From NCBI RefSeq assembly GCF_041248615.1, contig NZ_CP158426.1: 64,000 bases of DNA, one strand, 5' to 3'. Numbering within the stretch: position 1 is the first letter of the stretch; each line of letters begins with the position of its first letter. This DNA comes from Escherichia coli. GTDB taxonomy: Bacteria > Pseudomonadota > Gammaproteobacteria > Enterobacterales > Enterobacteriaceae. A model generated the notes under the pieces. The model was not told the origin of the DNA. It saw nothing but the letters and a program-made list of their open reading frames with translations, and did not search any database. Of the stretch, positions 39,852-57,747 are shown piece by piece. The position numbers and the translations under genes are program-made.

Positions 39852-42296
39852 TTACACCTTTTCAACCTGAACAAGGTTTGTATGTGACGGATTCCCCTTA
39901 GCGAGAGGAGACGGACGTTGAGTGGTCAGTACGTTGATACAACCGCCCTTATCGACACGTTTTGCATCCGGGTCATACCAGGCACCTTCACCCAGTGCGA
40001 CCACACCCGGCATCATTCGTGGCGTCACTTTCGCCTCAATATGAACCTCACCACGATCGTTAAAGATCCTGACTTTATCGCCGTTGTTGATACCGCGTTT
40101 TTGTGCATCAAGCGGGTTGATCCACATTTCCTGACGGCAAGCTGCTTTCAGCACATCAACGTTGCCGTAAGTTGAGTGAACGCGAGATTTGTAGTGGAAG
40201 CCAGTAAGCTGCAGCGGATATTGTTTGTTCAGCGGATCCTGATAACTTTCAAAGCCCGGCGTATAGATCGGCAGTGGATCGATCACATCGCCTTCTGGCA
40301 ATTCCCAGGTCGCGGCAATGTCAGCCAGCGCCTGCGAATAAATCTCAATTTTACCCGATGGCGTGGTCAGTGGATTTGCCTGAGGATCTTCACGGAAAGC
40401 TTTATAAGCAACGTGGTGCCCTTGTGGGTCGCGCTTTTTAAAGATCCCCTGCTTGCGGAACTCTTCAAACGTTGGCAGTTCAGGAATCGCTTCCCGCGAC
40501 TGGGCATACAGATGCCGCATCCACTCTTCCTGTGTACGGCCTTCAGTAAACTGTTGCTCAACGCCAAGACGTTTTGCCAGTTCGCTGGTCATTTCATAGA
40601 TGGTCTTACATTCAAAGCGCGGTTTAATCACCTGATCGTTGAAAATCACGTAAGACATATTCCCGCAGGATGCATCCAGTGCAAAGTCCATCTGTTCGGA
40701 AGCGGTGCAGTCAGGCAGCAGGATGTCAGCATATTTCGCTGATGAGGTCATGTGGCAGTCGATAACCACAATCAGCTCGCACTTCTTATCATCCTGAAGG
40801 ATTTCATGGGTACGGTTGATTTCAGAATGCTGGTTAATCAGGCAGTTACCGGCATAGTTCCAGATCATTTTGATCGGCACATCCAGCTTATCTTTCCCGC
40901 GCACACCATCACGCAGCGCTGTCATTTCCGGGCCACGTTCAATGGCATCGGTCCACATAAACATCGAAATGCTGGTCTGGATCGGGTTTTCGAGGGTCGG
41001 CATACGGACAAACGGTAAGCTGTATGAACCTTCACGCGCGCCGCTGTTCCCCCCGTTAATACCAACGTTACCGGTCAGAATCGCCAGCATCGAGATAGCA
41101 CGGGTTGCGATTTCACCGTTAGCGTGACGCTGCGGGCCCCATCCCTGGCTGATAAACGCCGGTTTGGTACTGCCGATTTCACGAGCCAGTTTGATGATTT
41201 TGTCTGCCGGAACACCGGTGATTTGCGAGGCCCATTCCGGCGTTTTAGCCACGCCATCTGGCCCTTCACCCAGAATATAAGCTTTATAGTGACCATTTTT
41301 CGGCGCACTGGCTGGCAGTGTTTTCTCGTCGTAGCCAACGCAATATTTATCGAGGAATGCCTGATCCACCAGGTTTTCGGTGATCATGACATACGCCAGA
41401 CCGTTAACCAGTGCGGCATCTGTTCCCGGACGAATGGGGATCCACTCATCTTCGCGCCCGGCTCCGGTGTCGGTATAGCGCGGATCGATGATGATCATGC
41501 GAGCATTAGATTTCTGACGCGCCTGTTCAAGATAGTAAGTCACCCCACCGCCACTCATTCGCGTTTCGCCAGGGTTATTACCAAACAGCACTACCAGTTT
41601 ACTGTTTTCGATATCCGACGGGCTGTTACCATCTGCCCAGCCGCCGTAGGTATAGTTCAAACCTTCCGCAATTTGCGCGGAAGAGTAGTCACCGTAATGG
41701 TTCAGATAACCGCCGCAGCAGTTCATCAGGCGAGCGACCAGGGTATTTCCCGGCGGCCAGGAGCGGGTCATGGTGCCGCCCAGCGTACCGGTGCCATAGT
41801 TCAGATAGATAGACTCGTTGCCGTACTCTTTGATCAGGCGCTGCATATTGGTCGCGATGATGTCGTAGGCTTCTTCCCAGCTAATGCGCTCGAATTTGCC
41901 TTCACCGCGCGCCCCGACTCGTTTCATCGGATATTTCAGGCGGTCCGGATTGTAGACACGGCGACGCATGGAACGCCCACGCAGACAGGCGCGCACCTGG
42001 TGCAGGCCGTCATAGTTGTCATCGCCGGTATTATCCGTTTCAACATATTTAATTTCACCGTCCACAACGTGCATACGTAGCGGGCAGCGACTACCACAGT
42101 TAACTGTACAGGCGCTCCAGATAACCTTTTCGTCTGATTTTGTTGGAATGGCGCTATCGACAGCGTGCGCAATCCGACTAAAAGGTAATGTTAATGCGCT
42201 GCTGGCCATTGCCAGGCCGCCGATCGCTGTCGTTTTTACCAAACCACGGCGACTCACCTCAGCAGCCAATACCGCATCAGGGATTTTCGTTTTCAT
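39852..42296 (-). CDS. dmsA: DMSO reductase molybdopterin catalytic subunit with Tat signal
   Basis: 814 aa ORF with twin-arginine leader SRRGLVKTTAIGGLAMASSALTLPFS; dmsABC arrangement. Confidence 0.92.
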   Translation of the reverse strand: MKTKIPDAVLAAEVSRRGLVKTTAIGGLAMASSALTLPFSRIAHAVDSAIPTKSDEKVIWSACTVNCGSRCPLRMHVVDGEIKYVETDNTGDDNYDGLHQVRACLRGRSMRRRVYNPDRLKYPMKRVGARGEGKFERISWEEAYDIIATNMQRLIKEYGNESIYLNYGTGTLGGTMTRSWPPGNTLVARLMNCCGGYLNHYGDYSSAQIAEGLNYTYGGWADGNSPSDIENSKLVVLFGNNPGETRMSGGGVTYYLEQARQKSNARMIIIDPRYTDTGAGREDEWIPIRPGTDAALVNGLAYVMITENLVDQAFLDKYCVGYDEKTLPASAPKNGHYKAYILGEGPDGVAKTPEWASQITGVPADKIIKLAREIGSTKPAFISQGWGPQRHANGEIATRAISMLAILTGNVGINGGNSGAREGSYSLPFVRMPTLENPIQTSISMFMWTDAIERGPEMTALRDGVRGKDKLDVPIKMIWNYAGNCLINQHSEINRTHEILQDDKKCELIVVIDCHMTSSAKYADILLPDCTASEQMDFALDASCGNMSYVIFNDQVIKPRFECKTIYEMTSELAKRLGVEQQFTEGRTQEEWMRHLYAQSREAIPELPTFEEFRKQGIFKKRDPQGHHVAYKAFREDPQANPLTTPSGKIEIYSQALADIAATWELPEGDVIDPLPIYTPGFESYQDPLNKQYPLQLTGFHYKSRVHSTYGNVDVLKAACRQEMWINPLDAQKRGINNGDKVRIFNDRGEVHIEAKVTPRMMPGVVALGEGAWYDPDAKRVDKGGCINVLTTQRPSPLAKGNPSHTNLVQVEKV

Positions 42297-42466
42297 AATG
42301 GCTCACTCAAGCTTGCTCACGATTGATTCCAGTAACAAACCGTATTGTGTAATTATTTCTATAGCAGTTCGCTATATAGGCTTGTATACATCGAATAATT
42401 TGAAAATCAAAGAGATAGGTAGATTTTCACTCGAAAGTAGTATTACGTGTAAGTGAGGAGTAATTA

Positions 42467-42480
42467 TTGTTCGGTATCAA
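42467..42480. promoter_or_regulatory. candidate FNR-box-like dyad upstream of dmsA
   Basis: TTGTTcggtATCAA matches TTGAT-N4-ATCAA with one mismatch; position relative to the true dmsA transcription start not verified. Confidence 0.3.
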
Positions 42481-42592
42481 AGGGAGACAAAAAAAGCGCC
42501 CGCAGGAGATTTAACGGTACTTACTCCTCTTGCTGATTTCCTTATTTTTCAATAAGTAAACAAAAACAAGGGGAGCAAATTATCACAAATAA

Positions 42593-43597
42593 TTACTGGT
42601 CGATGGACAGTTTATGGACACTTTCAGCCAGCGGATTAAAGCTGATCGCATCCTGTAAAAAGTCCGGTGAAAAATGCGCATACGTCATCGTTTGCTGAAT
42701 CGTGGCGTGACCCAGGATCCTCTGCAACGTGACGATGTTCCCGCCGTTCATCATGAAATGCGTGGCGAACGTGTGCCGCATGACATGCGTGGCCTGCCCT
42801 TTGGGTAAGTCGGGCTTCACCTCCTGAAGGATCTCCCTGAAACTGAGATAATCAACCTGATATAACAGGCCGGTCCGGCGGGTTTTAATTAACGGCACAA
42901 CGGAATCAGCTACAGGAACCGAGCGCGATTTCCCGTTCTTTGTGTTAAAGAACGTCACCCTGTTACCCACGATGTGTTCCCCGCGAAGCGTTGACGCCTC
43001 TTTCCATCTGGCCCCGGTCGAAAGGCACAGAATGGCAATGCGTCGTGCATCACCCTCAAGCCGTTTCAGAAGGCGATCAATCTCGTCATCTGAAAGAAAG
43101 GCCATTTCTGTATTCTGAACCTTGAGTTTACGTATTCCGCGCACAGGGTTTTCGTTATGATAAACCTCCGCGTCAATTAACAACGAAAACATCGCAGATA
43201 AGGCGCACAGGTCGCGATTGATACTGGACGGCATCAGTCCCGCCTGCAACTTATCCGAGCGATACTCAATCACGAATTTTCGTGTCATCTGGCTGGCGCG
43301 CGGGTCCCCCATTTCACGTATCACCTTCTCCAGTCTGGTTCTGTAGGTATCACCATATGCCTGATTACGACCATCAAGCATCCACCACACCTCAATCAGT
43401 TCTGATAACCGCCGTTGATCGGCGGGCCTTGCCTGCCACGGGTTATTGTGGAAATTCTGAAGAACGTATCTTTCGAATTCCTGCGCCTTTGATTTCAGGG
43501 TGAAAATCTTACGAATCCGCCTTCCTCCCGCCCCCTGAGGCCTTACATCAACCTGATAACGTCCGTCTTTGAGTTGCTTAATCGACATGATCAGCAC
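42593..43597 (-). CDS. int: tyrosine-type phage integrase (P2 Int-like)
   Basis: 334 aa ORF; C-terminal HxxR...Y catalytic motifs (VMRHTFATHF, LGHATIQQTMTYAHF); N-terminus IKQLKDGRYQVDVRP resembles P2 Int; adjacent to host junction. Confidence 0.85.
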   Translation of the reverse strand: MLIMSIKQLKDGRYQVDVRPQGAGGRRIRKIFTLKSKAQEFERYVLQNFHNNPWQARPADQRRLSELIEVWWMLDGRNQAYGDTYRTRLEKVIREMGDPRASQMTRKFVIEYRSDKLQAGLMPSSINRDLCALSAMFSLLIDAEVYHNENPVRGIRKLKVQNTEMAFLSDDEIDRLLKRLEGDARRIAILCLSTGARWKEASTLRGEHIVGNRVTFFNTKNGKSRSVPVADSVVPLIKTRRTGLLYQVDYLSFREILQEVKPDLPKGQATHVMRHTFATHFMMNGGNIVTLQRILGHATIQQTMTYAHFSPDFLQDAISFNPLAESVHKLSIDQ

Positions 43598-43657
43598 CTC
43601 CGACGGATAAACCTGTTAACCCCTGCTTACTGAACGCCGCCCGTTCAATATACAGCG

Positions 43658-43999
43658 TCAGCCAGCATTGCGGCCTGATTGGGGTGATTTTTGGGTATTG
43701 CGGGTTGAAACCTGATCGTCCTCCGACTGCGTGGAGCCATCAAGAGAGAGAGCCGGGGCGATCTGACCGGCAACAGGTAGCGTCTTATCTTTGATTAGCC
43801 AGAACATATATTTTTCAAACCGATCCACTTGAAGGACGGCCTCAACAATCTTTGCTCTGGCGATCTTTTGCCCTGACTCATAATTCCTGACAGTTGCCAG
43901 AGATAACCCTGTAATATCAGCAAATTGCTTTTGAGTTAGCCCTTCCGTCTTGCGTATCAAACGCAACTTTTTCGCATAGTCTATTGACAAGATACTCAT
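43658..43999 (-). CDS. phage immunity repressor, P2 C-like (HTH)
   Basis: 113 aa ORF with HTH (LTQKQFADITGLSLATVRNYESG) and C-terminal QIAPALSLDG...SPQSGRNAG resembling P2 C repressor; divergent from cox-like gene. Confidence 0.75.
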   Translation of the reverse strand: MSILSIDYAKKLRLIRKTEGLTQKQFADITGLSLATVRNYESGQKIARAKIVEAVLQVDRFEKYMFWLIKDKTLPVAGQIAPALSLDGSTQSEDDQVSTRNTQKSPQSGRNAG

Positions 44000-44022
44000 T
44001 TGGGGATTAATCTCCTACAAAA

Positions 44023-44067
44023 GATAACCGTACGATTATCTTTACAAGTCATCAAAAATCATCAAAA
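44023..44067. promoter_or_regulatory. candidate early promoter/operator region
   Basis: Near-perfect 22-bp palindrome AAGATAACCGTACGATTATCTT followed by tandem direct repeats TCATCAAAA/ATCATCAAAA in the C/cox-like intergenic region. Confidence 0.4.
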
Positions 44068-44102
44068 GGCGCAACAAGCGCACCAATGCAAGAGGATAAC
44101 AA

Positions 44103-44624
44103 ATGCGGGAGATTATTGCCGACAAAGAGTTATCTGGCGCTCAACCGGTTCAGGATGATGGCGCGGACAATGAATTCATTGAAGCTGCCAACGACAACGA
44201 ACACCTGGAAACCAAAACCAGACCGTCCTACAAAAAGGGCGCAACCCTACGACTGGACGGCCCAGTCGCAGGACTTGTGTCACTGGAAAAAGGGGCTGCC
44301 TATCTGGGGGTAACAAAATCTGCGCTACGCGCCGCCATTCAGCGCGGGCAGATGCCGGGTCACAAAACGCGCTCAAATCCCGAAGATGAAAAGTCAGACG
44401 GTACATGGTGGTTTAACGCCAAAGCCTGGGACGAACTAGCCGACGAACTACTGGAGTGCGAACCGCCAGAGTGGCACAACTGGAAAAGCTACTGGACGTA
44501 CGACCGCAAGAAAAGAAAGTTTTCACCGGCAAACAAGGAGGACTGCCAGACCGTTAAAGGTAAGCAGGTTTACTCCCCCAGAGTTTCAAAACTGGAGCAA
44601 CTCAAAAACAACCAGCCCGGCTAA
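44103..44624 (+). CDS. cox-position early gene, HTH-containing (excisionase/regulator-like), 173 aa
   Basis: First rightward ORF after repressor, RBS gagga upstream; contains AAYLGVTKSALRAAIQRGQMPG HTH-like segment; much longer than P2 Cox. Confidence 0.5.
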   Translation: MREIIADKELSGAQPVQDDGADNEFIEAANDNEHLETKTRPSYKKGATLRLDGPVAGLVSLEKGAAYLGVTKSALRAAIQRGQMPGHKTRSNPEDEKSDGTWWFNAKAWDELADELLECEPPEWHNWKSYWTYDRKKRKFSPANKEDCQTVKGKQVYSPRVSKLEQLKNNQPG

Positions 44625-44632
44625 ACACGAAA

Positions 44633-44839
44633 ATGACCAGCAATATCATCAATGCCGTTTTGAACATTATATTCCTGGAATTAGGCGTAGTAGTGATTTA
44701 TCTGCTTGGCAAGCTAACAGGACAAAAAGAACGTTTTATTGTCCTCAACGTTCATTACGTCGCAGCTTATTCTAAAGGGCTTTTTCCAATAGTTGTTGGC
44801 GCGGGACTTACAGCGTTTGTCATCTGGCTCATCAGGTAG
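44633..44839 (+). CDS. hypothetical small membrane protein (68 aa)
   Basis: ORF with two hydrophobic segments directly after cox-like gene. Confidence 0.3.
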   Translation: MTSNIINAVLNIIFLELGVVVIYLLGKLTGQKERFIVLNVHYVAAYSKGLFPIVVGAGLTAFVIWLIR

Positions 44840-45121
44840 AGGCACACAACGTAATCATTCGTAGCTATATTTCCGCAATAGTATTCAAGTAAAGGAAGAC
44901 AACAACATGAAACCAAGACAAAGATTAACCTCCAGAAGTAGTGACGCATTGCACTTTAAAGCAAAAGACATAATAGCCACAACAAAGGTAGGAGCATAAG
45001 TCTATATACACTTTCAGAATTTCTATCTGGAGAGAACATTAAAAACGGAAGAGGAAGCCAATGAGTATTTGTTATTCATGAAAGATTGCATAGAAGGAAA
45101 AATAAGCGCAGGAGATAAATA

Positions 45122-45430
45122 ATGCGAAAACATTATTCACAGCCACATTTCCGCAACAGTGCACCACGCAGCAATAACCGCTGGAGCCTGCGCGAAACAC
45201 ACGCAACGCCGGGCGGTCATGCTGTAAAACAGACTGGTCAACACACCTGGCTGATTGAGCAGGCCGGACTCGTGATCCACAGATGCCACCGCAATCCGTT
45301 TACCGGAAACCGCATTTTTGCACTGAGCAGCGGCGACAATCAGTTCGGACAGGATTTCACACTGCACGAAGCCTTGCGAACTGCCGACCGCTTAATCGAG
45401 GGGCGCAGCTTTCAGCATACCGACTACTAA
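45122..45430 (+). CDS. hypothetical protein (102 aa)
   Basis: ORF preceded by AT-rich spacer and RBS-like ggagataaataATG. Confidence 0.4.
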   Translation: MRKHYSQPHFRNSAPRSNNRWSLRETHATPGGHAVKQTGQHTWLIEQAGLVIHRCHRNPFTGNRIFALSSGDNQFGQDFTLHEALRTADRLIEGRSFQHTDY

Positions 45431-45468
45431 GGCAAAAGGAGTCTTAATAAGACAGAAGAGGCAGCAAG

Positions 45469-45711
45469 ATGAAAAGAGCCTATAAAGAACTCATTAACGA
45501 CGCGCTTCAGAATTACCATTACGGACTTACAAGCCGTGGCACTAACGGTGACGCTGTTTCACTTGCAGCACTGACTACAGCAATCAAGGGCCTGACCTGT
45601 TGCGCCTTTGGTTCCGGAGATAATGAAGCTCTGACGGAATTACAGGCCATTAATAAAGACCTGTCTGAAGGAAACGTAATAACCCCCTTTGTAATTCAGG
45701 AGGAAGCATGA
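45469..45711 (+). CDS. hypothetical protein (80 aa)
   Basis: ORF with RBS-like aggcagcaagATG; co-directional with early operon. Confidence 0.4.
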   Translation: MKRAYKELINDALQNYHYGLTSRGTNGDAVSLAALTTAIKGLTCCAFGSGDNEALTELQAINKDLSEGNVITPFVIQEEA

Positions 45712-45833
45712 GCGTATTTATGTCATGGTTAATTCTTATCCTTGCCATTATTTGCGCTGTGGGGATTATGCGGGTAATTAACAGCATTAACACCATTGAA
45801 TCGTTATTTACTGGCGATAAGCGCCGTAAATAA
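45708..45833 (+). CDS. hypothetical small hydrophobic peptide (41 aa)
   Basis: ATGA-overlap coupling to preceding ORF; MSVFMSWLILILAIICAVGIM single TM segment; below ORF-table size cutoff. Confidence 0.3.
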   Translation: MSVFMSWLILILAIICAVGIMRVINSINTIESLFTGDKRRK

Positions 45834-45913
45834 ACAGGCGTTTAACACCAGAAACAACCAGAAACATCCGCTCACGCGGAGGGGTTGACCCGCTCAAAAA
45901 GGAGAAATCAGGA

Positions 45914-46207
45914 ATGCTTAATAATAAAAAAAACCGAATCATTGATAACAGTGAACAGGTCAACAAAATAATCGAAGGCACAAACAAATTAATTAAGAAA
46001 AAAAACAAACTAAGCCGTGAATTAATGGAACATCCGGAAGAAATATTATTAGCCATGATGCACCAGACAGAAGCGATAGCCATCGCCCTTGCCGTGCAGG
46101 CGCTTTCTGAGTTCCGGGAAGAAAACATCAGGCTGGCTCAGGAGCTGAAAAACCTCAGACGTCAGCTTCAGAGCACTGAGGCTGGCACGTCATCACGAAT
46201 ACACTGA
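45914..46207 (+). CDS. hypothetical coiled-coil protein (97 aa)
   Basis: ORF with RBS aaaggagaaatcaggaATG; AT-rich, K/E-rich sequence. Confidence 0.4.
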   Translation: MLNNKKNRIIDNSEQVNKIIEGTNKLIKKKNKLSRELMEHPEEILLAMMHQTEAIAIALAVQALSEFREENIRLAQELKNLRRQLQSTEAGTSSRIH

Positions 46208-46217
46208 GGGCCACACC

Positions 46218-46427
46218 ATGACTGCAATTCTGAGAAGACGCAATAAAACGCTTTTTACCGATACATCCGGGATGGAATACGAAGTGGAAAGCAGTGTCAT
46301 CGCCACCACCACCCGATGCCCGGCAGGTGACGAACTGATTTACGTCCACCTGACGGACGGGTCACAGATAACCGTCCTGACAGAGTCATGGCGCGAACTC
46401 GAGATAATAAGCGAGGTAAGAACATGA
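46218..46427 (+). CDS. hypothetical protein (69 aa)
   Basis: ORF closely following previous, co-directional. Confidence 0.4.
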   Translation: MTAILRRRNKTLFTDTSGMEYEVESSVIATTTRCPAGDELIYVHLTDGSQITVLTESWRELEIISEVRT

Positions 46428-46636
46428 GCAGCAAACACGATACCAACGCACGCAGACCAGGCAAAGAGGCGCGTCACCATATCGCCGTAATGCGCAACCT
46501 GCTTATGAGTGAAATCGACGATTTTGTGGCAGGCCTGGGGCAACCGGGCGAACCAGCAACACCAGGCCAGATACACAGGGAATTACGCCGCCGCGTGGAA
46601 AACGTCGTGGATTACGTCATAAACCCGAACGACTGA
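46424..46636 (+). CDS. hypothetical protein (70 aa)
   Basis: ATGA-overlap coupled to preceding ORF (start MSSKHDTN). Confidence 0.4.
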   Translation: MSSKHDTNARRPGKEARHHIAVMRNLLMSEIDDFVAGLGQPGEPATPGQIHRELRRRVENVVDYVINPND

Positions 46637-46675
46637 CGGGAACATGGCGAGCGTCAGATGACACACGCAGGGCAC

Positions 46676-47158
46676 TTATCGGGAAAAACCGATCGTAATG
46701 GCAGCCATCATCTTTTCAGCGAAAGAGAGAGATTCACGATGACTGATATTCAGAGACATACAGGCTTTGTTGTACGCCACATTTTCCATGCATTCCAGGA
46801 CAGGAGAGTCATGCATCTCAAGCTCTGGAAGGCGTGCCAGCAGAGCTTCCGTACTGAGGAGGGCGCTTTTGGTAATCAACTCATTGTAGCGATGGGCATG
46901 CTCACTCGCCGCCTGCGCACGTTGCCCGAAACGACATATGAAATTACAGGCTCCGAGAACCACCACCACTGCCCCAAGCACCCAGCCGAAATGCCAGCCG
47001 GCTACGATGAACGCACCCGCCGCAAGGATCAAAATGTTGATGATCGCATCAAGGCGACGATTGAATACCGCCGCGATGCGCTCCAGCCAGTAGCTGTACC
47101 AGAGACGGAACATGACCTCATCCCGTTCTCTCGATTTTTTACGTTGGTTGTTTTGCAT
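46676..47158 (-). CDS. hypothetical membrane protein, opposite orientation within early region (160 aa)
   Basis: ORF with basic N-terminus and long hydrophobic segment AIINILILAAGAFIVAGWHFGWVLGAVVVVLGACNFI; RBS-like gaggga upstream; the overlapping plus-strand ORF 46658-47293 is His-rich and judged a shadow. Confidence 0.45.
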   Translation of the reverse strand: MQNNQRKKSRERDEVMFRLWYSYWLERIAAVFNRRLDAIINILILAAGAFIVAGWHFGWVLGAVVVVLGACNFICRFGQRAQAASEHAHRYNELITKSALLSTEALLARLPELEMHDSPVLECMENVAYNKACMSLNISHRESLSFAEKMMAAITIGFSR

Positions 47159-47392
47159 GGTGTTTTATCCCTCATCGTCATCGCTCTGCCCCTAATCAGC
47201 GCAGAGTGCAGGGTAACCTGGCTCGTGGAATTTTTGCAGCCAGACATCTTTACCCCCGGGCGTGTTGAACAAAGTGTCCGCCAGATCCACTGAACGGCGG
47301 ATTCATCAATGCTAACACGCCCTTCTTTTCCGGTTGAAGGCGAAAAAACCGGACCATTACCCCGACACAAAACAGAACAACGGAGAACAACT

Positions 47393-47947
47393 ATGCCCGC
47401 ACTTAAACCTATGGGTGTATCAGGTGTACCACCGAAGCATGTCAGAGCCTGGACACAACAGGAAGATGCTCTACTGGTCGGTTTATACCCCTCCCACACC
47501 GTACCAGAACTGACAAAACACTTTCAGAGAACCGGGCCAGCAATACGAAGCCGCATCCGTCTTTTGCTCTCTCAGGGGGTTATCCACACCAAACAACCCC
47601 CCCTGAATACAAAAGAACTCAACACGCTCATCAGGAATCGCCACACAAAAACCATCCGGGAACTCGCGAATGAACTGGGGCGCTCGACATCCACGGTGGG
47701 ACTGAACCTGAGAAAAAGAGGGTACCGGTTCAGGAAATACGGGGAACTCCACCACAGAGCCAGATACAGCGATCACCTGGTGGAGTTGGTAACTGAACTG
47801 CGCGATGAACAGGGGATGACATTCAGCGAAATCAGAAAGTACATCCGGGACATGGCCGGGATATCCCTTAAAAGATGGGTCCTCGCCCGGCTTTACGCAC
47901 GATATACCGCCGCTGACACCGTGCTTTGCGAACTGCTACCGGACTGA
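47393..47947 (+). CDS. hypothetical protein, possible DNA-binding (184 aa)
   Basis: ORF 47309-47947; start placed at MPALKPMG with RBS ggag upstream; basic, helix-rich segments. Confidence 0.4.
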   Translation: MPALKPMGVSGVPPKHVRAWTQQEDALLVGLYPSHTVPELTKHFQRTGPAIRSRIRLLLSQGVIHTKQPPLNTKELNTLIRNRHTKTIRELANELGRSTSTVGLNLRKRGYRFRKYGELHHRARYSDHLVELVTELRDEQGMTFSEIRKYIRDMAGISLKRWVLARLYARYTAADTVLCELLPD

Positions 47948-48036
47948 GTAACCACTATGCACACACAAAAAAACCGCTTGCCATGCCGCAATCAGTCAGG
48001 TTACATTTCCGCTGCACCTCATAAAACGGGTGCCGG

Positions 48037-48260
48037 GATTGCAACCCCCGCTGACAACTACAGCGCACAACCGCGCCAGCGGTTTTTTTGTGCGTACCGT
48101 ATCGCCACGTCTTTTTCGCGCCAGAATTATGGCGGGGCGTATGGGGCCGACTTCGGTCGGGCCGGTTTCTGTAGTTGCCGGTGGTTGCAACCCTGTACGT
48201 CTCGCCACCCAGAATTGCAACCTCTGGATGGTGAGTTTTCAAAACTTGCAACTACAGAGG
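48037..48260. repeat. non-coding repeat cluster (TTGCAAC and CAACTACAG motifs, with hairpins)
   Basis: TTGCAAC at about 48040, 48185, 48216, 48247; CAACTACAG at about 48054 and 48250 with inverted copy tgtagttg at about 48171; ccgacttcggtcgg tetraloop-type hairpin at about 48145. Confidence 0.5.
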
Positions 48261-48267
48261 CCACACC

Positions 48268-48492
48268 ATGGCAAACCGCAAACAACAGCGCGCATACGCT
48301 GCGCGTCGTCACATCCAGACTGAAATCAACCGCAGACTTTTCCGCGCATTCCGCGTCGCGCATATCATGCACATCAATATGCTGCATGAGCGCAGCCACG
48401 CACTGTCAAACATGTATTCCGCCGCTGTATTCAGCTACCTGGCGGATGACCTGCGCGAGCTGCAGGACCTCATTAACCAGCACCACCACTAA
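48268..48492 (+). CDS. hypothetical protein (74 aa)
   Basis: ORF with RBS agagg upstream, downstream of repeat cluster. Confidence 0.4.
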   Translation: MANRKQQRAYAARRHIQTEINRRLFRAFRVAHIMHINMLHERSHALSNMYSAAVFSYLADDLRELQDLINQHHH

Positions 48493-48560
48493 TCAACATC
48501 CCGGAGCCATCCCGCCCCCGTACGCGGGAGGCTTCCGCACGTCCGTTTCCGGAGGTTCTC

Positions 48561-48974
48561 ATGAAGAGCGTTAAGGGACTTTCAGATATTCAGGATTTTT
48601 TTAACTGGATGTGGGCGGTGGATCCACGCCTCGCTTCCCGTCTCAATGACCTGCACGACTATTACCGCCGCGCCTGTAAACAGGCAGCCCGCAGCGCTGC
48701 CACATACGGGGATTTTTCCTTCACCGTTGACGACCGTTACCGCGTGGATGTCAGAGACCAGAACCACAGCCTGGAGCTGGGCCTGTTCCACATCAACGGG
48801 TGCGACAGCAGCGTTATCAGCTGGTCATCGTCAGAAATGGTGCTCGTTCTGGAAATGACCACCCACAGCGTGGTCGTGAAAGGGATTAAAACAGCAGAAG
48901 ACTTTATCGCTGAATACCAGCGCCTTCTTGTGCTGTACCGGGCTGCATTTCAGAAGGCAACAGCAGGGGAGTAA
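48561..48974 (+). CDS. hypothetical protein immediately upstream of gene A (137 aa)
   Basis: ORF ending 5 nt before gene A start. Confidence 0.45.
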   Translation: MKSVKGLSDIQDFFNWMWAVDPRLASRLNDLHDYYRRACKQAARSAATYGDFSFTVDDRYRVDVRDQNHSLELGLFHINGCDSSVISWSSSEMVLVLEMTTHSVVVKGIKTAEDFIAEYQRLLVLYRAAFQKATAGE

Positions 48975-48979
48975 GCGGA

Positions 48980-51490
48980 ATGAGCCATCACCACACGCAC
49001 CTGGCGTACCCGTGGAACGCCCCGCTGCCGGTTATTGATCCTGAGACATTCGGCAGAGCATTACCGCAGAAGCCAACCGCATTACAACGGGCAATCCGTG
49101 ACTACCTCACCGAAGACATTCGCACTGAGGCCCGGCTGGATGAAGAAACCGTGGCCTTCCTGACAACCACGGACAAAGGTAAGCAAATTAATTCACACCT
49201 TCACCGGGACGAAGAGCGGCAGATAAGGCTGGATAAGCTGGCACGACACAGACGCGAAAATCCGCCAACGGCGGTATCGGAGGCGATAGCCGAACTTCGC
49301 ACCCTGCCCTCGTTTCTTGCCAGTGTGTTGATCCGTGATCTGGCACGACTGAACCGGAAACAGCAAAGTGCCCGCAGTGAAGGTGTAAAAAACAACAGCG
49401 CATACGTGGCCGATAATTTCGTTCGCCGTGGACTGCGTGCGCGCCTGAAACGTATTGAAAGGGTTAACGACCGCTTTGCAACGCCGGCATTCAAAACCAC
49501 CGTCGTGCGCCATCGCCTTGAAGAACTGCTCACACTGCCGCAACTCACCCGTGACGAAATCCAGCGCATCGCCACACTGACAGCCCAGGCATTCGCCGCA
49601 GAATTTGAACGCATATGTGATGAAGTTCTTGAACGGACAGGCAAGGATAATGACAGCCCGGTTATCTGGCTGCTGGCCTACCAGAAGGTGGCACGCACAG
49701 CCTTAATTCTGGGCATGGTCCCGCCATACTGGCCGGAACTCGAAATCAGGCACAACCGACGCACACCGCCGGACCCTGAACGGGTTCCGGGTGCGGTACT
49801 GCGCATCACCTGCGCGACCTGGTGGAACAACCAGTTACGCCACGTCGCCGATCTCTGGCGGGAGGAGTTACTGCGCGCCGCCGGCAGAGTGTCACGTAAA
49901 CAATCCCCCTATATCAGCCATGAGTCACTACTGGAGTTCCGCGAGAAGCGCCAGCGCACCTGTGACTTTCTCAAAAGCTGGGATATTGAAAACGAAGACG
50001 GCGAGCGCCTGAGTCTGGAGGACGTGTACTGGGCTGGCCTGGGTAATCCACGCAACCGCCGCAATGAAATGATGGTCTGCGTCAGAGGGATGGAGATGGT
50101 GGCCGAATTACGGGCTGACGTCGCATTCTTCATCACAGTAACCACCCCTTCCCGCTTTCACAGCGTGAACGAGAACGGCAGCCTGAACCCGAAATACAAC
50201 GGTGCCACAGTACGAGATGCCAGTGATTATCTGGTTTACGACTTCTTCGCAGCCGTAAGAAAAAAAATAAAAAAAGAGGGGCTGGGCTGGTACGGCGTGC
50301 GAACCGCTGAGCCACACCATGACGGCACGCCACACTGGCATATGCTGGTATTCACTTCCCCGGAGAACGCAGAGCGCATCATCGAAATTATGCGCGAAGC
50401 AGCAATTAAATCAGATCGCCACGAACTGGGGGACGATATTTCACCGCGCTTTAAATGCGAGAAGATAGACCCGGAAAAAGGCACACCGGCAAGCTATATC
50501 GCAACCTATATCGGTAAGAACCTGGACGCCAGCGCTTTCCACAACAATGATCCGAAAACCGGAAAACCTTACGTTGATGAGGAATCCGGGAAAACCATGG
50601 CGGAAACCGTGGAGAACGCCATTGCCTGGGCAAGCCTTCACCGCATCCGTCAGTTCCAGTTTTTCGGCATTCCGCCCCGCCAGGTATGGCGTGAACTCCG
50701 CCGCCTTGCAAGCCAGATGGAGCGCAACCCGGCATCACCGAAGCACCTCGATCATGACGATATTGACGCCATTATGGCTGCCGCAGATGTGGGATGTTTT
50801 GCCACCTACATCATGAAACAGGGTGGTGTGCTCATTCCGCGCAACCAGTATCTGGTCCGCACCGCATACGAAACCGCAGACGAAGCCAACGACTACGGTG
50901 AATTCCCTCAACGTATCTACGGAATCTGCGCCCCGTCGCTCGGAGAGCGGTACACCATATGCACCCATCCGGACGAGTGGAAACTGGTTAAAAAAGAAAC
51001 AACACCAGACAACCGCACGGGCGAGGGTTTTGACCTTCATGGCGACCCCGTCGCCCCTTGGACTCGTGGCAATAACTGTCCCCGGGATGAAAAAACAGAC
51101 AATCACGGACCAGAAAACAGGCAGGACCCCGGACGACTGACGCTTCCCGAAGAGAACCTGGAAAGCTGGCTGAATACGTTAAGCAGGGGCGATCGGAGAA
51201 AACTGCGTAATCAGATTAAAAATCAGCCGTCGGGCGCAAAAACCGGACAAAACGACACCACACCGGCATCTGACACCCCTGTAAGGGTGGGGATTGTCGT
51301 GCCTGCGGATACCGCGACGGACACGCAAATCGCCCGCGAACTTGATGCGCTGGGTGTGCAGTTGCCTGACGCGGCCATCATCTCCGTGCGTAACGGTGCC
51401 CGTGTGCGTCTGGATAACGGGGGAACAGCGTACTGGGATGAGTCAGCCCGTCACATCATCACAGAGCAGCCAGTGGAGGCGGGAGCATGA
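48980..51490 (+). CDS. A: replication initiation endonuclease, P2 gpA-like (rolling-circle)
   Basis: 836 aa ORF in the gene A position; HUH-type GTPHWHMLVF motif. Confidence 0.8.
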   Translation: MSHHHTHLAYPWNAPLPVIDPETFGRALPQKPTALQRAIRDYLTEDIRTEARLDEETVAFLTTTDKGKQINSHLHRDEERQIRLDKLARHRRENPPTAVSEAIAELRTLPSFLASVLIRDLARLNRKQQSARSEGVKNNSAYVADNFVRRGLRARLKRIERVNDRFATPAFKTTVVRHRLEELLTLPQLTRDEIQRIATLTAQAFAAEFERICDEVLERTGKDNDSPVIWLLAYQKVARTALILGMVPPYWPELEIRHNRRTPPDPERVPGAVLRITCATWWNNQLRHVADLWREELLRAAGRVSRKQSPYISHESLLEFREKRQRTCDFLKSWDIENEDGERLSLEDVYWAGLGNPRNRRNEMMVCVRGMEMVAELRADVAFFITVTTPSRFHSVNENGSLNPKYNGATVRDASDYLVYDFFAAVRKKIKKEGLGWYGVRTAEPHHDGTPHWHMLVFTSPENAERIIEIMREAAIKSDRHELGDDISPRFKCEKIDPEKGTPASYIATYIGKNLDASAFHNNDPKTGKPYVDEESGKTMAETVENAIAWASLHRIRQFQFFGIPPRQVWRELRRLASQMERNPASPKHLDHDDIDAIMAAADVGCFATYIMKQGGVLIPRNQYLVRTAYETADEANDYGEFPQRIYGICAPSLGERYTICTHPDEWKLVKKETTPDNRTGEGFDLHGDPVAPWTRGNNCPRDEKTDNHGPENRQDPGRLTLPEENLESWLNTLSRGDRRKLRNQIKNQPSGAKTGQNDTTPASDTPVRVGIVVPADTATDTQIARELDALGVQLPDAAIISVRNGARVRLDNGGTAYWDESARHIITEQPVEAGA

Positions 51491-51918
51491 CGCGATTTTG
51501 CTGCACCATGCAGCGCCCACAGTTTGAGGCCATCATGCGCCAGCGTATGCCGGTGCTGACACTGTTCAGGCCTGCCACAAGGCCACAACCGGGCGACGAG
51601 CTGGAAATCACGATAGTCAGCCCCGATCGCACCACGGAGACCACCATCGCCGACATACTCAACAGGCGGCCGGGCAGCGAGAGCCATAGCTGGACTGTCG
51701 TCATTCGTCCGCGCCGTTCGCCGGAGGAACCGGAGCCGTGCACGCCTGCCGGGAAAATCATGCAGAGATATCACGAAGAGCGGACACGCAGGCACAACGG
51801 CGGACTGGCCAGAACACTGAACACAGTCAATCACAAGGCCGCGCTGGCGCGAATGGTCTTTTCACCACAACGCAATTCATTCGCCAGACCAGCACAGAAC
51901 GGGAGGAAACAACAGTGA
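51487..51918 (+). CDS. hypothetical protein (143 aa), translationally coupled to gene A
   Basis: ATGA overlap with A stop; RBS ggagg upstream. Confidence 0.4.
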   Translation: MTRFCCTMQRPQFEAIMRQRMPVLTLFRPATRPQPGDELEITIVSPDRTTETTIADILNRRPGSESHSWTVVIRPRRSPEEPEPCTPAGKIMQRYHEERTRRHNGGLARTLNTVNHKAALARMVFSPQRNSFARPAQNGRKQQ

Positions 51919-53829: not shown

Positions 53830-55371
53830 ATGCCAACAGTTCCAATTTCTATGAGAAAACTTAAAGAAATTCTTAGGCTTAAATACGGTGTTGGACTCAG
53901 CCATCGACAAATTGGTCGTAGTCTTGCAATCTCCCCTTCCGTTGTATCCAGATATGCTAATCGGGCGGCTCAACTTGGCATAAAGCAGTGGCCCTTACCT
54001 ACAGGATGGGATGATACAAAACTAAAACATGCGTTCCTTCAGACCCAGGTTAAGATGAAGAAGCACTCTCTGCCTGACTGGGCTACAGTACACCGGGAAC
54101 TGCGTAATAAATGCGTGACGCTGCAGCTACTCTGGGAAGAATACTGTGAGCGTAATCCAGGCGGTTTTTACAGCTATAACCATTACTGCCGGATGTACCG
54201 TGAATGGCTCAAAACCACTTCACCATCAATGCGTCAGGTACATAAAGCTGGCGAAAAACTTTTCGTTGATTACTGTGGACCTACCGTTGGCGTTACCGAC
54301 CCTGAGACCGGAGAAATAAGAACTGCTCAGGTCATCGTAGCTGTTCTCGGGGCATCAAGTTACACATGGGCAGAGGCCACCTGGTCTCAGCAGCTTGAAG
54401 ACTGGGTGATGAGTCATGTTCGCTGCTTCCAGTGGTTGGGTGGCGTTCCTGAACTTGTTGTTCCGGACAATCTGAAAAGCGCCACATCCAGGGCATGTAA
54501 GTATGATCCTGACGTTAACCCTACCTACCAGCAGATGCTTGAGCATTATAATGTCGCAGTTTTGCCTGCGCGGCCACGTAAACCGAAAGATAAAGCCAAA
54601 GCTGAAGTTGGCGTTCAGGTTGTTGAACGCTGGATCATGGCCCGAATCAGGCATGAGATCTTCTACAGCCTTGCATCGCTTAATCAGCGCATTCGGGAGT
54701 TGCTGGAAAGACTGAATAACAAAATAATGCAGAAGTTGGGTTATTCACGTGCAGAACTCTTCATCCAGCTTGATAAACCCGCACTGAAGCCTCTTCCTGA
54801 AGCCAGTTACAGTTACACCCTGGTGAAGAAAGTCAGAGTTCATGCCGATTACCACGTGGAAATCGACAAACATTACTACTCGGTTCCATGTTCGCTGTTA
54901 GGCCAGCAACTGGAAGCATGGATCTCCGGAGAACTGGTAAGACTCTTCAATCAGGGGCAGGAGGTTGCTGTGCACCCGCGCAAGCGTACTTATGGCTACA
55001 GTACCCGCAACGAGCACATGCCTGAAGCTCATCGACAGCATGCCACCTGGACGCCAGAGCGTCTTCTGGAATGGGCGGGGCACATAGGCAGTGAAACTCA
55101 TAGTTATGTGCTTCATATACTGAACTCTCGTCCACATCCGGAACAAAGCTATCGCTTCTGCCTTGGACTCCTGAACCTTCATAAAAAATACAGTAAAGCC
55201 AGACTTAATGCAGCATGTGCAAGAGCTCTGAAAACAAAGGTATGGCGTCTGTCAGGTATTAAATCGATCCTGGAAAAAGGTCTGGATAAACAACCTGTTC
55301 AGGATCCAAAACCAGATCTGTTATCCACGATGGAACACGAAAACGTACGCGGCAGTGAGTATTACCACTGA
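53830..55371 (+). CDS. istA: IS21-family transposase IstA
   Basis: 513 aa ORF; N-terminal HTH (LSHRQIGRSLAISPSVVSRY) and integrase-like core. Confidence 0.85.
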   Translation: MPTVPISMRKLKEILRLKYGVGLSHRQIGRSLAISPSVVSRYANRAAQLGIKQWPLPTGWDDTKLKHAFLQTQVKMKKHSLPDWATVHRELRNKCVTLQLLWEEYCERNPGGFYSYNHYCRMYREWLKTTSPSMRQVHKAGEKLFVDYCGPTVGVTDPETGEIRTAQVIVAVLGASSYTWAEATWSQQLEDWVMSHVRCFQWLGGVPELVVPDNLKSATSRACKYDPDVNPTYQQMLEHYNVAVLPARPRKPKDKAKAEVGVQVVERWIMARIRHEIFYSLASLNQRIRELLERLNNKIMQKLGYSRAELFIQLDKPALKPLPEASYSYTLVKKVRVHADYHVEIDKHYYSVPCSLLGQQLEAWISGELVRLFNQGQEVAVHPRKRTYGYSTRNEHMPEAHRQHATWTPERLLEWAGHIGSETHSYVLHILNSRPHPEQSYRFCLGLLNLHKKYSKARLNAACARALKTKVWRLSGIKSILEKGLDKQPVQDPKPDLLSTMEHENVRGSEYYH

Positions 55372-55382
55372 TACGGGATCCA

Positions 55383-56132
55383 ATGATGAATCATCTTTAC
55401 GAACAACTGACCGCACTTAAACTCACCGGCTTCCGTGATGCGCTTAAAAAGCAACTTGCTCAGCCGGGCACATACCAGGAGCTGGGCTTCGAAGAACGCC
55501 TGTCATTACTGACAGCAGAAGAACTAACCTGCCGTGAAAACAGGAAGGCAGAGCGTCTGATCAAACATGCACGGTTCAGACTTAATGCTGAGTTATCAAA
55601 GCTGGATTATCGTAACAATAGAGGGCTGGACAGGGCCCTCATCCGTTCACTCAGTCAGGGAAACTGGTTAACCCTGAAACAAAATATTTTACTGACCGGG
55701 GCCACCGGCAGCGGTAAAACGTTCCTGGCATGTGCACTTGGTCATAATGCCTGCCGACAGGGATACAAGGTCTACTATTATCGCCTTAAAGCGCTGATGG
55801 AACAGTGCTATCAGGGGCATGCTGATGGAAGATACAGCAAACTTTTGACCAGGCTGAATAATAGCGATCTGCTGCTTCTGGATGACTGGGGGCTGGAACC
55901 TCTCTCATCAGAACAGCGTAGCGACCTGCTGGAAATAGTGGATCTGATGTACCAACGAGGCTCAATCATCGTAGTGAGCCAGTTGCCGGTGGAAAACTGG
56001 TACAAAATGATCGGAGACTCCACACATGCGGATGCCATCCTAGATCGACTGGTTCATGGCAGTATCAAGATCGAACTTAAAGGAGAATCAATGCGGAAAA
56101 TACAATCTCCGTTGACCGAAGGAGATCAGTGA
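55383..56132 (+). CDS. istB: IS21-family helper ATPase IstB
   Basis: 249 aa ORF with Walker A GATGSGKT and Walker B LLLLDDWG. Confidence 0.85.
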   Translation: MMNHLYEQLTALKLTGFRDALKKQLAQPGTYQELGFEERLSLLTAEELTCRENRKAERLIKHARFRLNAELSKLDYRNNRGLDRALIRSLSQGNWLTLKQNILLTGATGSGKTFLACALGHNACRQGYKVYYYRLKALMEQCYQGHADGRYSKLLTRLNNSDLLLLDDWGLEPLSSEQRSDLLEIVDLMYQRGSIIVVSQLPVENWYKMIGDSTHADAILDRLVHGSIKIELKGESMRKIQSPLTEGDQ

Positions 56133-56691: not shown

Positions 56692-57747
56692 TCAGGATAT
56701 GGGCTGGGTGTCTAACAGTGCGTAAGGGTTAAAACGGATCACCTCTTCGCCCAGCCAGTCGTTGACGTGTTTCATTGCTTCCATGACGGGCATCAGTTCG
56801 TTAATGGCAAACACACGGGCTGCCTTCTCCACATCCCCGAATGACCCCTTCTCACCCGGCATGGCCCCCATCAGCTGCGGCGGTACACGGTGCACGGACA
56901 GCACATCATCACGCGATGCAGCCTTGACGTTCATGAACTCATCCTTTGCGGTGATTTGCTGAAACGGCAAAATCTGTACGCCATCCTTACCACCTCCCGC
57001 CGCGTGGATGAGCAGATTTTTAAACGCCCCGCCACCACGCGCGCTTTGCAGTGTTTCCCGCAGTTTTTCCATGCTTTCACGGTCAACCTGCGCCGCACCG
57101 ATGTAGACAATACAGCCCGCGTGTGAGCCGTTATCGTAGTAGAGCTTGCGGAAGATATCGGCGGAATGTGACAGGCTGGCAGACAGCAGGCCGCCCAGGT
57201 AATCCGGCATCCCGTAAATCTCCTGGTTGATATCAGGATTCATCAGGTGGCATATCGTCCCCTCACGAAAGCGGTACTCTTCCTGTCCTTCCTGTATATA
57301 CCACCATGATTTCATATCGCTGCCACGTCGCATGTATTTCGCCAGCGCCCGGCGCAGGGCCAGCGGTTCGCCAAGCATGTTGCGCCGCAGCTCAAGACAG
57401 GCATTACCGAACACAAACCAGTCCATCGCCACCCCGGCGAACTCCTGGCGGGACAGCAGAGGATGTGGAATATAGCAGCCCAGCAGCACATTACGTTTGA
57501 AGCTGAGCGCCGACTGGTGCCAGGACGTCTGGCGGGCAGCCCGTGCCAGTCCGTACCAGTCAACGGGCGTTTCAAACCACCGCCCGTTGTCGGCGCAGTA
57601 CATGCTGTCCAGCAGGTCGGCCCCTGACAGCCGGTAAGGTCCTTCAAACGTGAAGGCACTCAGTGTCGGGTCGCTTCGCAGGGAATCCGCAAGGCTGCCC
57701 TGCGCTGCGCGGGCGTTCGTACGTCGTTGTTTATTTTTTCTGCTCAT
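56692..57747 (-). CDS. Q: phage portal protein, P2 gpQ-like
   Basis: 351 aa ORF, leftward, stop overlapping the downstream terminase gene; position and size match P2 Q. Confidence 0.8.
   Translation of the reverse strand: MSRKNKQRRTNARAAQGSLADSLRSDPTLSAFTFEGPYRLSGADLLDSMYCADNGRWFETPVDWYGLARAARQTSWHQSALSFKRNVLLGCYIPHPLLSRQEFAGVAMDWFVFGNACLELRRNMLGEPLALRRALAKYMRRGSDMKSWWYIQEGQEEYRFREGTICHLMNPDINQEIYGMPDYLGGLLSASLSHSADIFRKLYYDNGSHAGCIVYIGAAQVDRESMEKLRETLQSARGGGAFKNLLIHAAGGGKDGVQILPFQQITAKDEFMNVKAASRDDVLSVHRVPPQLMGAMPGEKGSFGDVEKAARVFAINELMPVMEAMKHVNDWLGEEVIRFNPYALLDTQPIS

Follow-up and report, generated by a model that had tools for sequence, protein, structure and literature searches.

Positions 44,633 to 48,974 of a 64,000-nucleotide stretch of Escherichia coli DNA (contig NZ_CP158426.1; the whole stretch is called the window here) hold the small early genes of a P2-family prophage, between a gene for a Cox-family protein and gene A. 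The interval from Cox to gene A is 4355 bp long (Table 1). In the RefSeq annotation of the 100% identical copy of the region in E. coli GF60 (NZ_CP172185), it has 11 coding sequences (CDS), ten on the plus strand and one on the minus strand. The interval also contains a cassette formed by an isrK-type RNA, a C4-type antisense RNA and a homologue of the epsilon anti-repressor of P4. This cassette, at 47978-48492, is absent from an initial annotation of the sequence, and it is the one part of the interval with a readable mechanism. What the initial annotation described is borne out: an interval of about 4.4 kb with at least ten small open reading frames (ORFs), ATGA overlaps that couple neighboring ORFs (read in the sequence at 45708 and 46424), a gene in the Cox position about twice the size of P2 Cox (173 against 91 amino acids, aa), and AT-rich spacers (GC content 0.38-0.42 at about 44650-45250 and 0.39-0.44 at 45550-46150, against 0.50-0.57 elsewhere).

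Table 1. Features of the prophage arm in the window. Positions are those of the window; the fifth column gives the number of loci with a homologue among 100 IMG/VR relatives, and the last the ratio of nonsynonymous to synonymous changes (pN/pS). HTH, helix-turn-helix; nt, nucleotides; sRNA, small RNA.
Feature	Position	Strand	Match or character	Loci of 100	pN/pS
dmsA	39852-42296	-	host gene left of the prophage arm		
STnc130 host sRNA	42387-42521	+	Rfam RF02084, 125.8 bits		
Integrase (Int)	42593-43597	-	51% identical to P2 Int		
P2-C-type HTH repressor, 113 aa	43658-43999	-	P2 C, 34% identity by tblastn, 33% in alignment		
Cox-family excisionase/early regulator, 173 aa	44103-44624	+	left flank of the interval; Pfam Phage_Cox PF10743, 34.8 bits (cut-off 27.5), residues 56-129; phrog_23196, E=1.6e-92	24 (Cox of this type)	
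Small hydrophobic protein, 68 aa	44633-44839	+	phrog_14475, E=3.7e-25; variable-zone gene	21	0.29-0.33
AT-rich spacer, swap zone 1	44840-45121	.	GC about 0.38-0.42; without conserved ORF		
DUF4761 protein, 102 aa	45122-45430	+	PF15958, E=4.7e-47; conserved anchor	80	0.09-0.35
DUF4754 protein, 80 aa	45469-45711	+	PF15946, 41.1 bits; phrog_2549	17 (diverged)	0.41
Hydrophobic peptide, 41 aa	45708-45833	+	ATGA-coupled to DUF4754; conserved anchor	88	0.11-0.25
97-aa ORF	45914-46207	+	AT-rich DNA; weak coiled-coil-type Pfam matches only, no family	2	
69-aa ORF	46218-46427	+	no family; 45% identical homologue in L010/L011	4	0.51
70-aa ORF	46424-46636	+	ATGA-coupled to the 69-aa ORF; phrog_4144, E=8.6e-13	31	0.12
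Stand-alone SLATT-like all-helical protein, 160 aa	46676-47158	-	phrog_6315, E=5e-65; convergent with the early operon	10	0.18
HTH DNA-binding protein	47393-47947	+	184 aa from ATG 47393; in RefSeq also 212 aa from 47309	12	
Promoter-like site for isrK	47978-48007	+	TTGCCA, 18 nt, TACATT; consensus scan; predicted start about 48014		
isrK-type small RNA	48014-48089	+	Rfam RF01394, 60.1 bits (gathering 50), E=3.7e-11		
C4/CI-type antisense RNA	48125-48212	+	Rfam RF01695, 80.1 bits (gathering 45), E=7e-15		
Downstream target pair in the epsilon leader	48215-48260	+	a2 48215-48222; b2 48249-48258		
Homologue of the P4 epsilon (E) anti-repressor ('derepression protein'), 74 aa	48268-48492	+	Pfam PF25738, 27.2 bits (cut-off 27); BLASTP	100	0.34-0.62
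137-aa protein	48561-48974	+	phrog_3237, E=3e-53; always directly upstream of A	34 (diverged)	
Gene A, replication endonuclease	48980-51490	+	right flank of the interval; P2 A, 32% identity over 623 aa, E=3e-87	78 (some loci truncated)	

The best phage matches of the region are to phages of the P88 type, and P88 is classified in the genus Xuanwuvirus of the Peduoviridae. The window and the P88-like phages have a gene order in common: cox, DUF4761, the 41-aa peptide, variable genes, isrK/C4/epsilon, an ORF of phrog_3237 and A. From cox to A the distance is 3.95 kb in P88, 4.05 kb in PV468777, 4.2 kb in Shae_phiSM, 3.3 kb in P884B11 and 3.7-3.9 kb in two E. coli prophages at other sites (glsA and btuC), and each of these six relatives has about 12 small ORFs there. 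The long interval is therefore a trait of the lineage and not an expansion of the P2 region. In P2 itself, cox and A are 1.75 kb apart with six ORFs between them (2.03 kb counting cox); this agrees with the 2 kb of the initial annotation, and the region here is about twice as long. The claim of the initial annotation that a P2-type region was expanded does not hold, because relatives with the same anchors have intervals of similar length; P2 is the wrong yardstick.

Our reading, to which we give a probability of about 75%, is that 44633-48974 forms the normal inner part of the early operon in a P88-like (Xuanwuvirus-related, Peduoviridae) prophage beside STnc130 and dmsA, and that it carries an isrK-C4-epsilon cassette. 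P88, other Xuanwuvirus phages and the Sakai prophage Sp13 share with the window the gene order, the anchors and the cassette. They differ in the type of Int, C and Cox, and the SLATT-like gene, the HTH gene and the 97-aa orphan found here are rare in that group. Gene A is 51-55% identical to A of the P88 group (51% to that of P88 itself), and a megablast of 42500-51600 against P88 covers 15% of the query. Membership of the same genus as P88 is thus doubtful, and a related lineage is indicated instead; this comparison covers the part of the prophage that lies inside the window.

The gap without ORFs at 47950-48267 (about 310 bp) is not a spacer but holds two RNA genes that score above their Rfam gathering thresholds. 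The C4 match is full length (model positions 1-87 of 87). With the same two models, P4 scores 60.8 bits in its seqA region (isrK) and 74.9 bits in its CI RNA (C4), and P4 epsilon lies downstream. The isrK RNA is the equivalent of P4 seqA and of a1b1 in P1. It contains the targets a1 (48039-48046) and b1 (48055-48063), and a terminator scan finds an intrinsic terminator at its end (hairpin 48069-48084 with a U7 run). The predicted start of the promoter-like site coincides with the first base of isrK. Its hexamers and 18-nt spacing are kept in 76 unique relatives, with a variable spacer sequence, and we predict that it acts as the isrK promoter. C4 has two segments that may pair with targets, the hairpin-2 loop b' (48166-48177) and the 3' joining strand a' (48183-48190). 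Downstream of C4 is the second target pair, of which b2 overlaps the Shine-Dalgarno sequence of epsilon (AGAGG, 48256-48260). By these matches the cassette can be assigned to the Rfam C4 and isrK families and, marginally, to the Pfam Derepression family. It is found in 1150 of 5426 complete E. coli genomes.

In the public records that we examined the isrK and C4 RNAs are unannotated or overlaid by spurious CDS, so automated readers meet 'hypothetical ORFs' at an RNA switch. The P88 record has a minus-strand 62-aa CDS over the RNA genes (L004 5033-5221), the PV468777 record a feature 'similar to ash family protein' (L002 6694-6954), and the P4 record the historical 137-aa 'cI gene product' (L012 8168-8584). 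Here a 205-aa ORF (47957-48574) overlaps epsilon. We rejected it as coding, given a pN/pS of 1.0-2.3 against the lower values in the epsilon frame, and it has no Pfam match. Its counterparts are recorded as a 'transcriptional regulator' in P884B11 (L006 5278-5895) and as a 'hypothetical protein' in PhiR44_2 (L007 4313-4930).

The complementarity between C4 and its targets is exact in the window. The b' loop is complementary to CAACTACAG in isrK (48055-63) and to CAACTACAGA over the Shine-Dalgarno sequence (48249-58), and a' is complementary to TTGCAACC, which is present in both target pairs (48039-46 and 48215-22). The 76 unique P88-type modules combine 15 b' loops with 5 a' strands in 21 ways, and both target copies nearly always follow. 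In an alignment of 33 sequences, 31 of them distinct, 99.0% of the cells are paired for a1/b1 and 98.4% for a2/b2; changes on both sides are seen in 11/16 pairs of a1/b1 and 10/16 of a2/b2. Column shuffles give a covariation score of 0.12-0.13 (0/500) and sliding the partners one of at most 0.22, against 0.66 for the real pairs. Local duplex energies are -12 to -17 kcal/mol (-12 to -15 for a2/b2), and these alone were used; whole-RNA duplexfold energies were uninformative relative to shuffles. Covariation with both target pairs is strong evidence that the contacts are under selection, and it points to a specificity system coded in RNA.

Three loci have unusual combinations of these segments. 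In L024 (10286-10552, minus strand), a recombinant, isrK has a1/b1 of another type than its own C4, and a2/b2 are cognate. L009 (6511-6777) is 97.7% identical to the window overall; it shares a' and has a different b', and its b1 and b2 match its b'. The C4 variant of L127 has hairpin 2 twice in tandem, with differing b' loops (ATTCTTTGCTCT and GTTCTTGTGTAG), and may be a dual-specificity antisense RNA. 'Mirror-image' a' strands, seen by eye, were considered as a sign of cross-talk between P88-type and P4-type RNAs; this idea was dropped, since each orientation is found in both groups and the b' loops do not complement one another.

The protein of the cassette is 29% identical to P4 epsilon by BLASTP (E=1e-7). 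Relatives score 28.2 and 31.8 bits with PF25738, and no NCBIfam model matched the protein in the window. We aligned P2 C with the repressors of the window and of six P88-type phages, which are 33-52% identical to it; residues F58, K60, Y61 and W64 are invariant. This motif lies in helix 5 of the repressor, and a GQ-P-L motif is also common to the aligned proteins. Mutations of P2 C at residues 64, 67 and 70 affect the binding of P4 E (PMC2995052). The epsilon homologue is, from these comparisons, a plausible anti-repressor of the resident repressor. The P2-like Sakai prophage Sp13 has a P4 epsilon-like gene, noted in 2009, and is mitomycin-inducible (PMC2669165), and P88 was recovered after mitomycin C treatment (PMC5285337). 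The presence of an epsilon-like gene in a P2-like prophage was thus already known; the unannotated RNAs and the covariation analysis are added here. A scan of the window for LexA boxes (CTGT-N8-ACAG) gave one match, inside istB of an IS21-family element and at chance level, so no SOS link was found.

The mechanism that we propose builds on features legible in the DNA itself, namely the RNA family matches, the homology and reading frame of epsilon, the overlap with its ribosome-binding site and the covarying complementarity. The promoter-like site would drive isrK, and this transcript would end at the intrinsic terminator. Transcripts that read through, or that come from the early promoter, would carry the C4/CI-like RNA, and C4 would be processed out of the longer transcript. 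Its a' and b' segments would pair with a2 and b2 in the epsilon leader, and since b2 covers the Shine-Dalgarno sequence, translation of epsilon would be blocked. IsrK, which carries a second copy of the targets (a1/b1), would compete for C4 or remodel the leader. In the lysogen, epsilon would be held off by C4; epsilon would otherwise bind the P2-C-type repressor and the prophage would be derepressed. The processing of C4, its role in the lysogen and the action on the repressor are modeled on P4, P1 and Gifsy-1. Expression of the 137-aa gene and A, further downstream, may also be reduced by leader RNA that is left untranslated.

P4 has the closest counterpart, with a target pair, an RNA, a target pair, an epsilon homologue and a replication gene in the same order. 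Its second target also covers the Shine-Dalgarno sequence, and the two Rfam models give similar scores. P4 is a satellite; the cassette here belongs to a P2-family phage of the helper type, which encodes a protein repressor of its own. No kil or eta genes were seen between the RNA and epsilon here, the next gene is unrelated to ORF151, and there is an A-type endonuclease instead of the alpha primase. The immI region of P1 and P7 (a1b1 - c4 - a2b2 - icd - ant) reportedly has a duplicated target pair, two single-stranded segments in its antisense RNA, a b2 that covers the ribosome-binding site of its first gene, an anti-repressor as output and a specificity that varies between heteroimmune phages, all of which resemble the cassette. 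The Rfam C4 family was built on P1/P7. The cassette is not a member of immI, since it has no icd or ant homologue; its output is a 74-aa epsilon-type protein, and its upstream targets lie in a separately terminated isrK-type RNA.

Gifsy-1 of Salmonella (isrK - orf45/STnc1160 - anrP) is similar in having an isrK with its own promoter (predicted here), a C4-like stable RNA downstream, an anti-repressor as output and a tie to prophage induction; its terminator is leaky (PMC4825925). IsrK has been described as a structural homologue of P4 seqA and controls the anti-repressor (PMC4825925). Gifsy-1 differs in being lambdoid, in its anti-repressor family and in translation coupled through orf45. P2 shares with the window an interval between the C/Cox switch and A on the same strand, and homologous A, C and Int; it has neither the RNA cassette nor epsilon.

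Several observations weigh against our reading of the interval and its cassette. Promoter activity, C4 processing and the outcome of the regulation are predictions. In Gifsy-1 the short IsrK activates downstream translation, and over-expression of the C4-like RNA did not relieve toxicity (PMC4825925), so that the sign of the regulation here could differ from that in P1 and P4. The Pfam score of epsilon is just 0.2 bits above the cut-off. The epsilon proteins of relatives are 63-87% identical to that of the window and the linked repressors 33-46% (except in L002, with 88%), and Thr67 of P2 C, the sos site, is not conserved in the aligned repressors, so binding to the resident repressor is only a prediction. 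Most of the small ORFs are without an assigned function, among them DUF4761, DUF4754 and the small peptides, and so is the HTH protein. The 160-aa protein scores 16.5 bits with SLATT_1, below the cut-off of 41, and the link of the 137-aa protein to DUF5405/Orf83 is weak, with an hhalign probability of 8%.

The cassette may instead act mainly by transcription-termination immunity of the P4 type over epsilon, the 137-aa gene and A, an alternative that is compatible with our reading and that we regard as possible, if somewhat unlikely. P4 has the same order of seqA, CI, seqC, epsilon, further genes and a replication gene, and the 137-aa gene and A follow the cassette directly, at short distances. 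We also found a 19/21-nt inverted repeat (47961-47981 / 48075-48095) that pairs sequence upstream of isrK with the 3' half and U run of its terminator; only transcripts begun further upstream would have the terminator sequestered. The minimum-energy fold of 47955-48100 disrupts the terminator (-55.9 kcal/mol, z = -4.65). The repeat might in this way act as an anti-terminator and let early-promoter transcripts read through; we keep this idea only as a hypothesis, because the repeat is near-invariant, without covariation, and its upstream arm coincides in part with the isrK promoter (the -35 hexamer and a possible UP element), an overlap that alone could explain the conservation. A Rho-dependent terminator is not recognisable from sequence, and the position of b2 over the Shine-Dalgarno sequence is a translational design of the P1 type.

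It is a little less probable, and on the whole unlikely, that epsilon acts on the repressors of other P2-family prophages (or against or for satellites), with the RNA types setting who triggers whom. A conserved epsilon beside diverged repressors in all but one relative would fit this, as would the helix-5 motif that is invariant across heteroimmune repressors, the 21 combinations of RNA specificity together with the recombinants L024 and L009, and the action of P4 epsilon in trans on the repressor of another element. However, the binding is a prediction, and a generic anti-repressor would also hit its own repressor, so that the two readings overlap. Sp13 is the sole P2-like prophage in Sakai, yet it is inducible. 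A further and rather doubtful proposal sees in the cassette an RNA lock of two parts (at least 15 b' by at least 5 a') on a generic anti-repressor directed at the helix-5 face that many heteroimmune P2-C-type repressors have in common, with the immunity specificity coded in RNA.

To separate core from cargo we used IMG/VR loci fetched by a 23-nt stretch that covers C4 hairpin 1, of which 100 carry a P88-type module; since these relatives were selected for the C4 hairpin, the presence of epsilon in 100/100 is by selection. The layout consists of conserved anchors (DUF4761, the 41-aa peptide, the epsilon cassette, the ORF upstream of A, and A) and swap zones. There are three swap zones with small genes that vary between lineages, from cox to DUF4761, from the 41-aa peptide to the 70-aa ORF, and from the 70-aa ORF to isrK. 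In a sub-lineage with about 78% DNA identity (L010, L011) the whole order is kept, including the minus-strand gene and the HTH gene. Ten ORFs have a diverged relative, and measured against it their pN/pS is 0.09-0.56, which argues that they are real genes; the 97-aa ORF is known only from copies that are at least 98% identical.

The initial annotation favored a P2-type early region about doubled by separate acquisition of cargo for host takeover, anti-defence or exclusion, and we consider this improbable. In its support there are AT-rich segments, in which two of the five rarer genes (97-, 69- and 160-aa, HTH and 68-aa) are located, the rarity among relatives of the 97-aa (2/100), 69-aa (4/100), 160-aa (10/100) and HTH (12/100) genes, the nature of the 160-aa gene as a minus-strand SLATT-like moron, and the lack of a gene B homologue. 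The region is indeed a mosaic, with several rare ORFs, but no expansion event is indicated: all P88-like relatives examined have the long interval, and most of the ORFs are conserved anchors under purifying selection. There is also no P2 backbone (orf78, B, orf80-82) for cargo to enter. By BLAST, A, C and Int are homologous to those of P2, and none of the ORFs of the interval match the P2 early region; the P2 early proteins, compared with the whole window, find A and a weak match to Cox. Searches with P2 orf78, B and orf80-83 (tblastn and blastp at E<=10 across the window) gave only chance-level matches. The absence of gene B that the initial annotation reported thus appears real at the sensitivity of BLAST. 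Of the ordinary conserved early genes of P2, Orf83/DUF5405 may have a distant counterpart in the ORF before A, which speaks in part against the initial annotation.

The functions that were suggested for this cargo find no direct support. PADLOC-DB 2.0 gave no match at E<=0.01 in ten proteins (nine of the eleven ORFs of the interval and the ORF after A; DUF4761 and DUF4754 were left out), and the SLATT-like moron is the only candidate. An NCBIfam scan gave nothing beyond a sub-threshold match to SLATT_1 and a spurious match to IS21. The description of the ORFs as unannotatable fails for three, which belong to Pfam families (DUF4761, DUF4754 and Derepression, PF25738). That the cassette is a remnant of a P4-like satellite inserted in the prophage is highly improbable: there is homology to the P4 seqA-CI-epsilon block, and some IMG/VR P4-type modules have the identical 23-nt stretch of hairpin 1, but the cassette has a fixed place between conserved P88-type genes in every relative examined, and 1150 complete E. 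coli genomes carry it. No further P4 gene turned up in the neighborhood, the 137-aa ORF shows no relationship to ORF151 of P4, and the outer stem of C4 is of a distinct P88 type.

Among the small ORFs, the 68-aa protein is probably located at the membrane, and the 41-aa peptide is predicted to have a single membrane span. The AT-rich spacer of swap zone 1 contains an unannotated 30-aa ORF (44907-44999, plus strand) with a good ribosome-binding site (AAGGAAG); PV468777 has a 141-aa CDS and a minus-strand 63-aa CDS at this place instead. The 97-aa ORF is a lineage-restricted orphan, with only copies of at least 98% identity among 5.8 billion proteins. It has no significant Pfam match, no PHROG match and no PADLOC match, and we regard it as a putative gene.

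The HTH gene is annotated from phrog_323 ('transcriptional regulator', E=2.6e-27), and its Pfam HTH matches are sub-threshold only. The start at ATG 47393, with a GGAG Shine-Dalgarno sequence, is more likely than the one that gives 212 aa. The gene is divergent from the minus-strand gene, and Shae_phiSM has an 85% identical copy directly upstream of isrK. Sequence searches of the PDB gave nothing meaningful for the HTH protein and for Cox.

The 137-aa protein may correspond distantly to P2 Orf83 and have an additional helical stretch at its N-terminus. In P2, Orf83 precedes A and carries the annotation DUF5405. The AlphaFold2 (AF2) model of the 137-aa protein (predicted local distance difference test, pLDDT, 82) matches DUF5405 proteins in BFVD (probability 1.0, target-normalized template modeling score (TMt) 0.62, E about 0.03). 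The hhalign match of the family to P2 Orf83 (E=0.004 at the low probability given above) is weak, and 4/16 members match PF17399, also weakly. A PDB sequence search with the family gave no meaningful match. A relationship of this ORF to P4 ORF151 was rejected, as there is no similarity.

The 160-aa protein belongs to a family of 107 representative clusters by exhaustive phmmer, typically of about 150-165 aa, that has no Pfam family. Weak NCBIfam matches are to SLATT_4 in 25/90 members (best E=8.6e-7) and to SLATT_1 in 5/90. The AF2 model is all-helical (pLDDT 96), and its top BFVD matches are SLATT proteins (probability 1.0, query-normalized score (TMq) 0.5-0.69, E 0.01-0.2); by analogy the protein would have two membrane spans. 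There was no PDB match by sequence, and Foldseek against the PDB gave generic helical matches only. Two distant members of the family are found in unrelated prophages, in an orientation opposite to their neighbors, and no SMODS/SLOG-type or other sensor partner was found beside the gene here or in these two contexts. It is most likely an independently expressed SLATT-like membrane moron. Its function, which could be that of a single-gene exclusion or abortive-infection system, is a guess.

To the left of the interval, STnc130 separates dmsA from the prophage integrase, whose stop codon is about 70 bp away, and the 3' side of this sRNA gene appears to be the attachment site. The STnc130/integrase arrangement is also found in PV468777 (L002 1388-1522). 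To the right, an IS21-family element lies inside the prophage (53830-56132, plus strand), between the region after A and the portal gene (56692-57747, minus strand). It encodes a 513-aa IstA with rve and Mu-transposase C-terminal domains and a 249-aa IstB (PF01695, E=2e-67). The otherwise identical prophage of GF60 has its IS21 copy elsewhere and in the opposite orientation.

The early region described here is the standard one for a prophage type that about one in five complete E. coli genomes carries. The family of stand-alone SLATT-like morons offers an inexpensive target for phage-exclusion screening. The covarying RNA-target pairs and the conserved epsilon-type anti-repressor could explain how P2-family prophages without SOS-cleavable repressors are induced, and also the interplay of heteroimmune relatives or satellites. 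If the RNA lock on a generic anti-repressor were true, the immunity specificity of P88-like prophages would lie in RNA and not in the pairing of repressor and operator. Residents could then be cross-induced by an incoming phage, or by a satellite of a non-matching RNA type, and P2-family prophages without SOS-cleavable repressors, such as P88 and Sp13, would have a route of induction.

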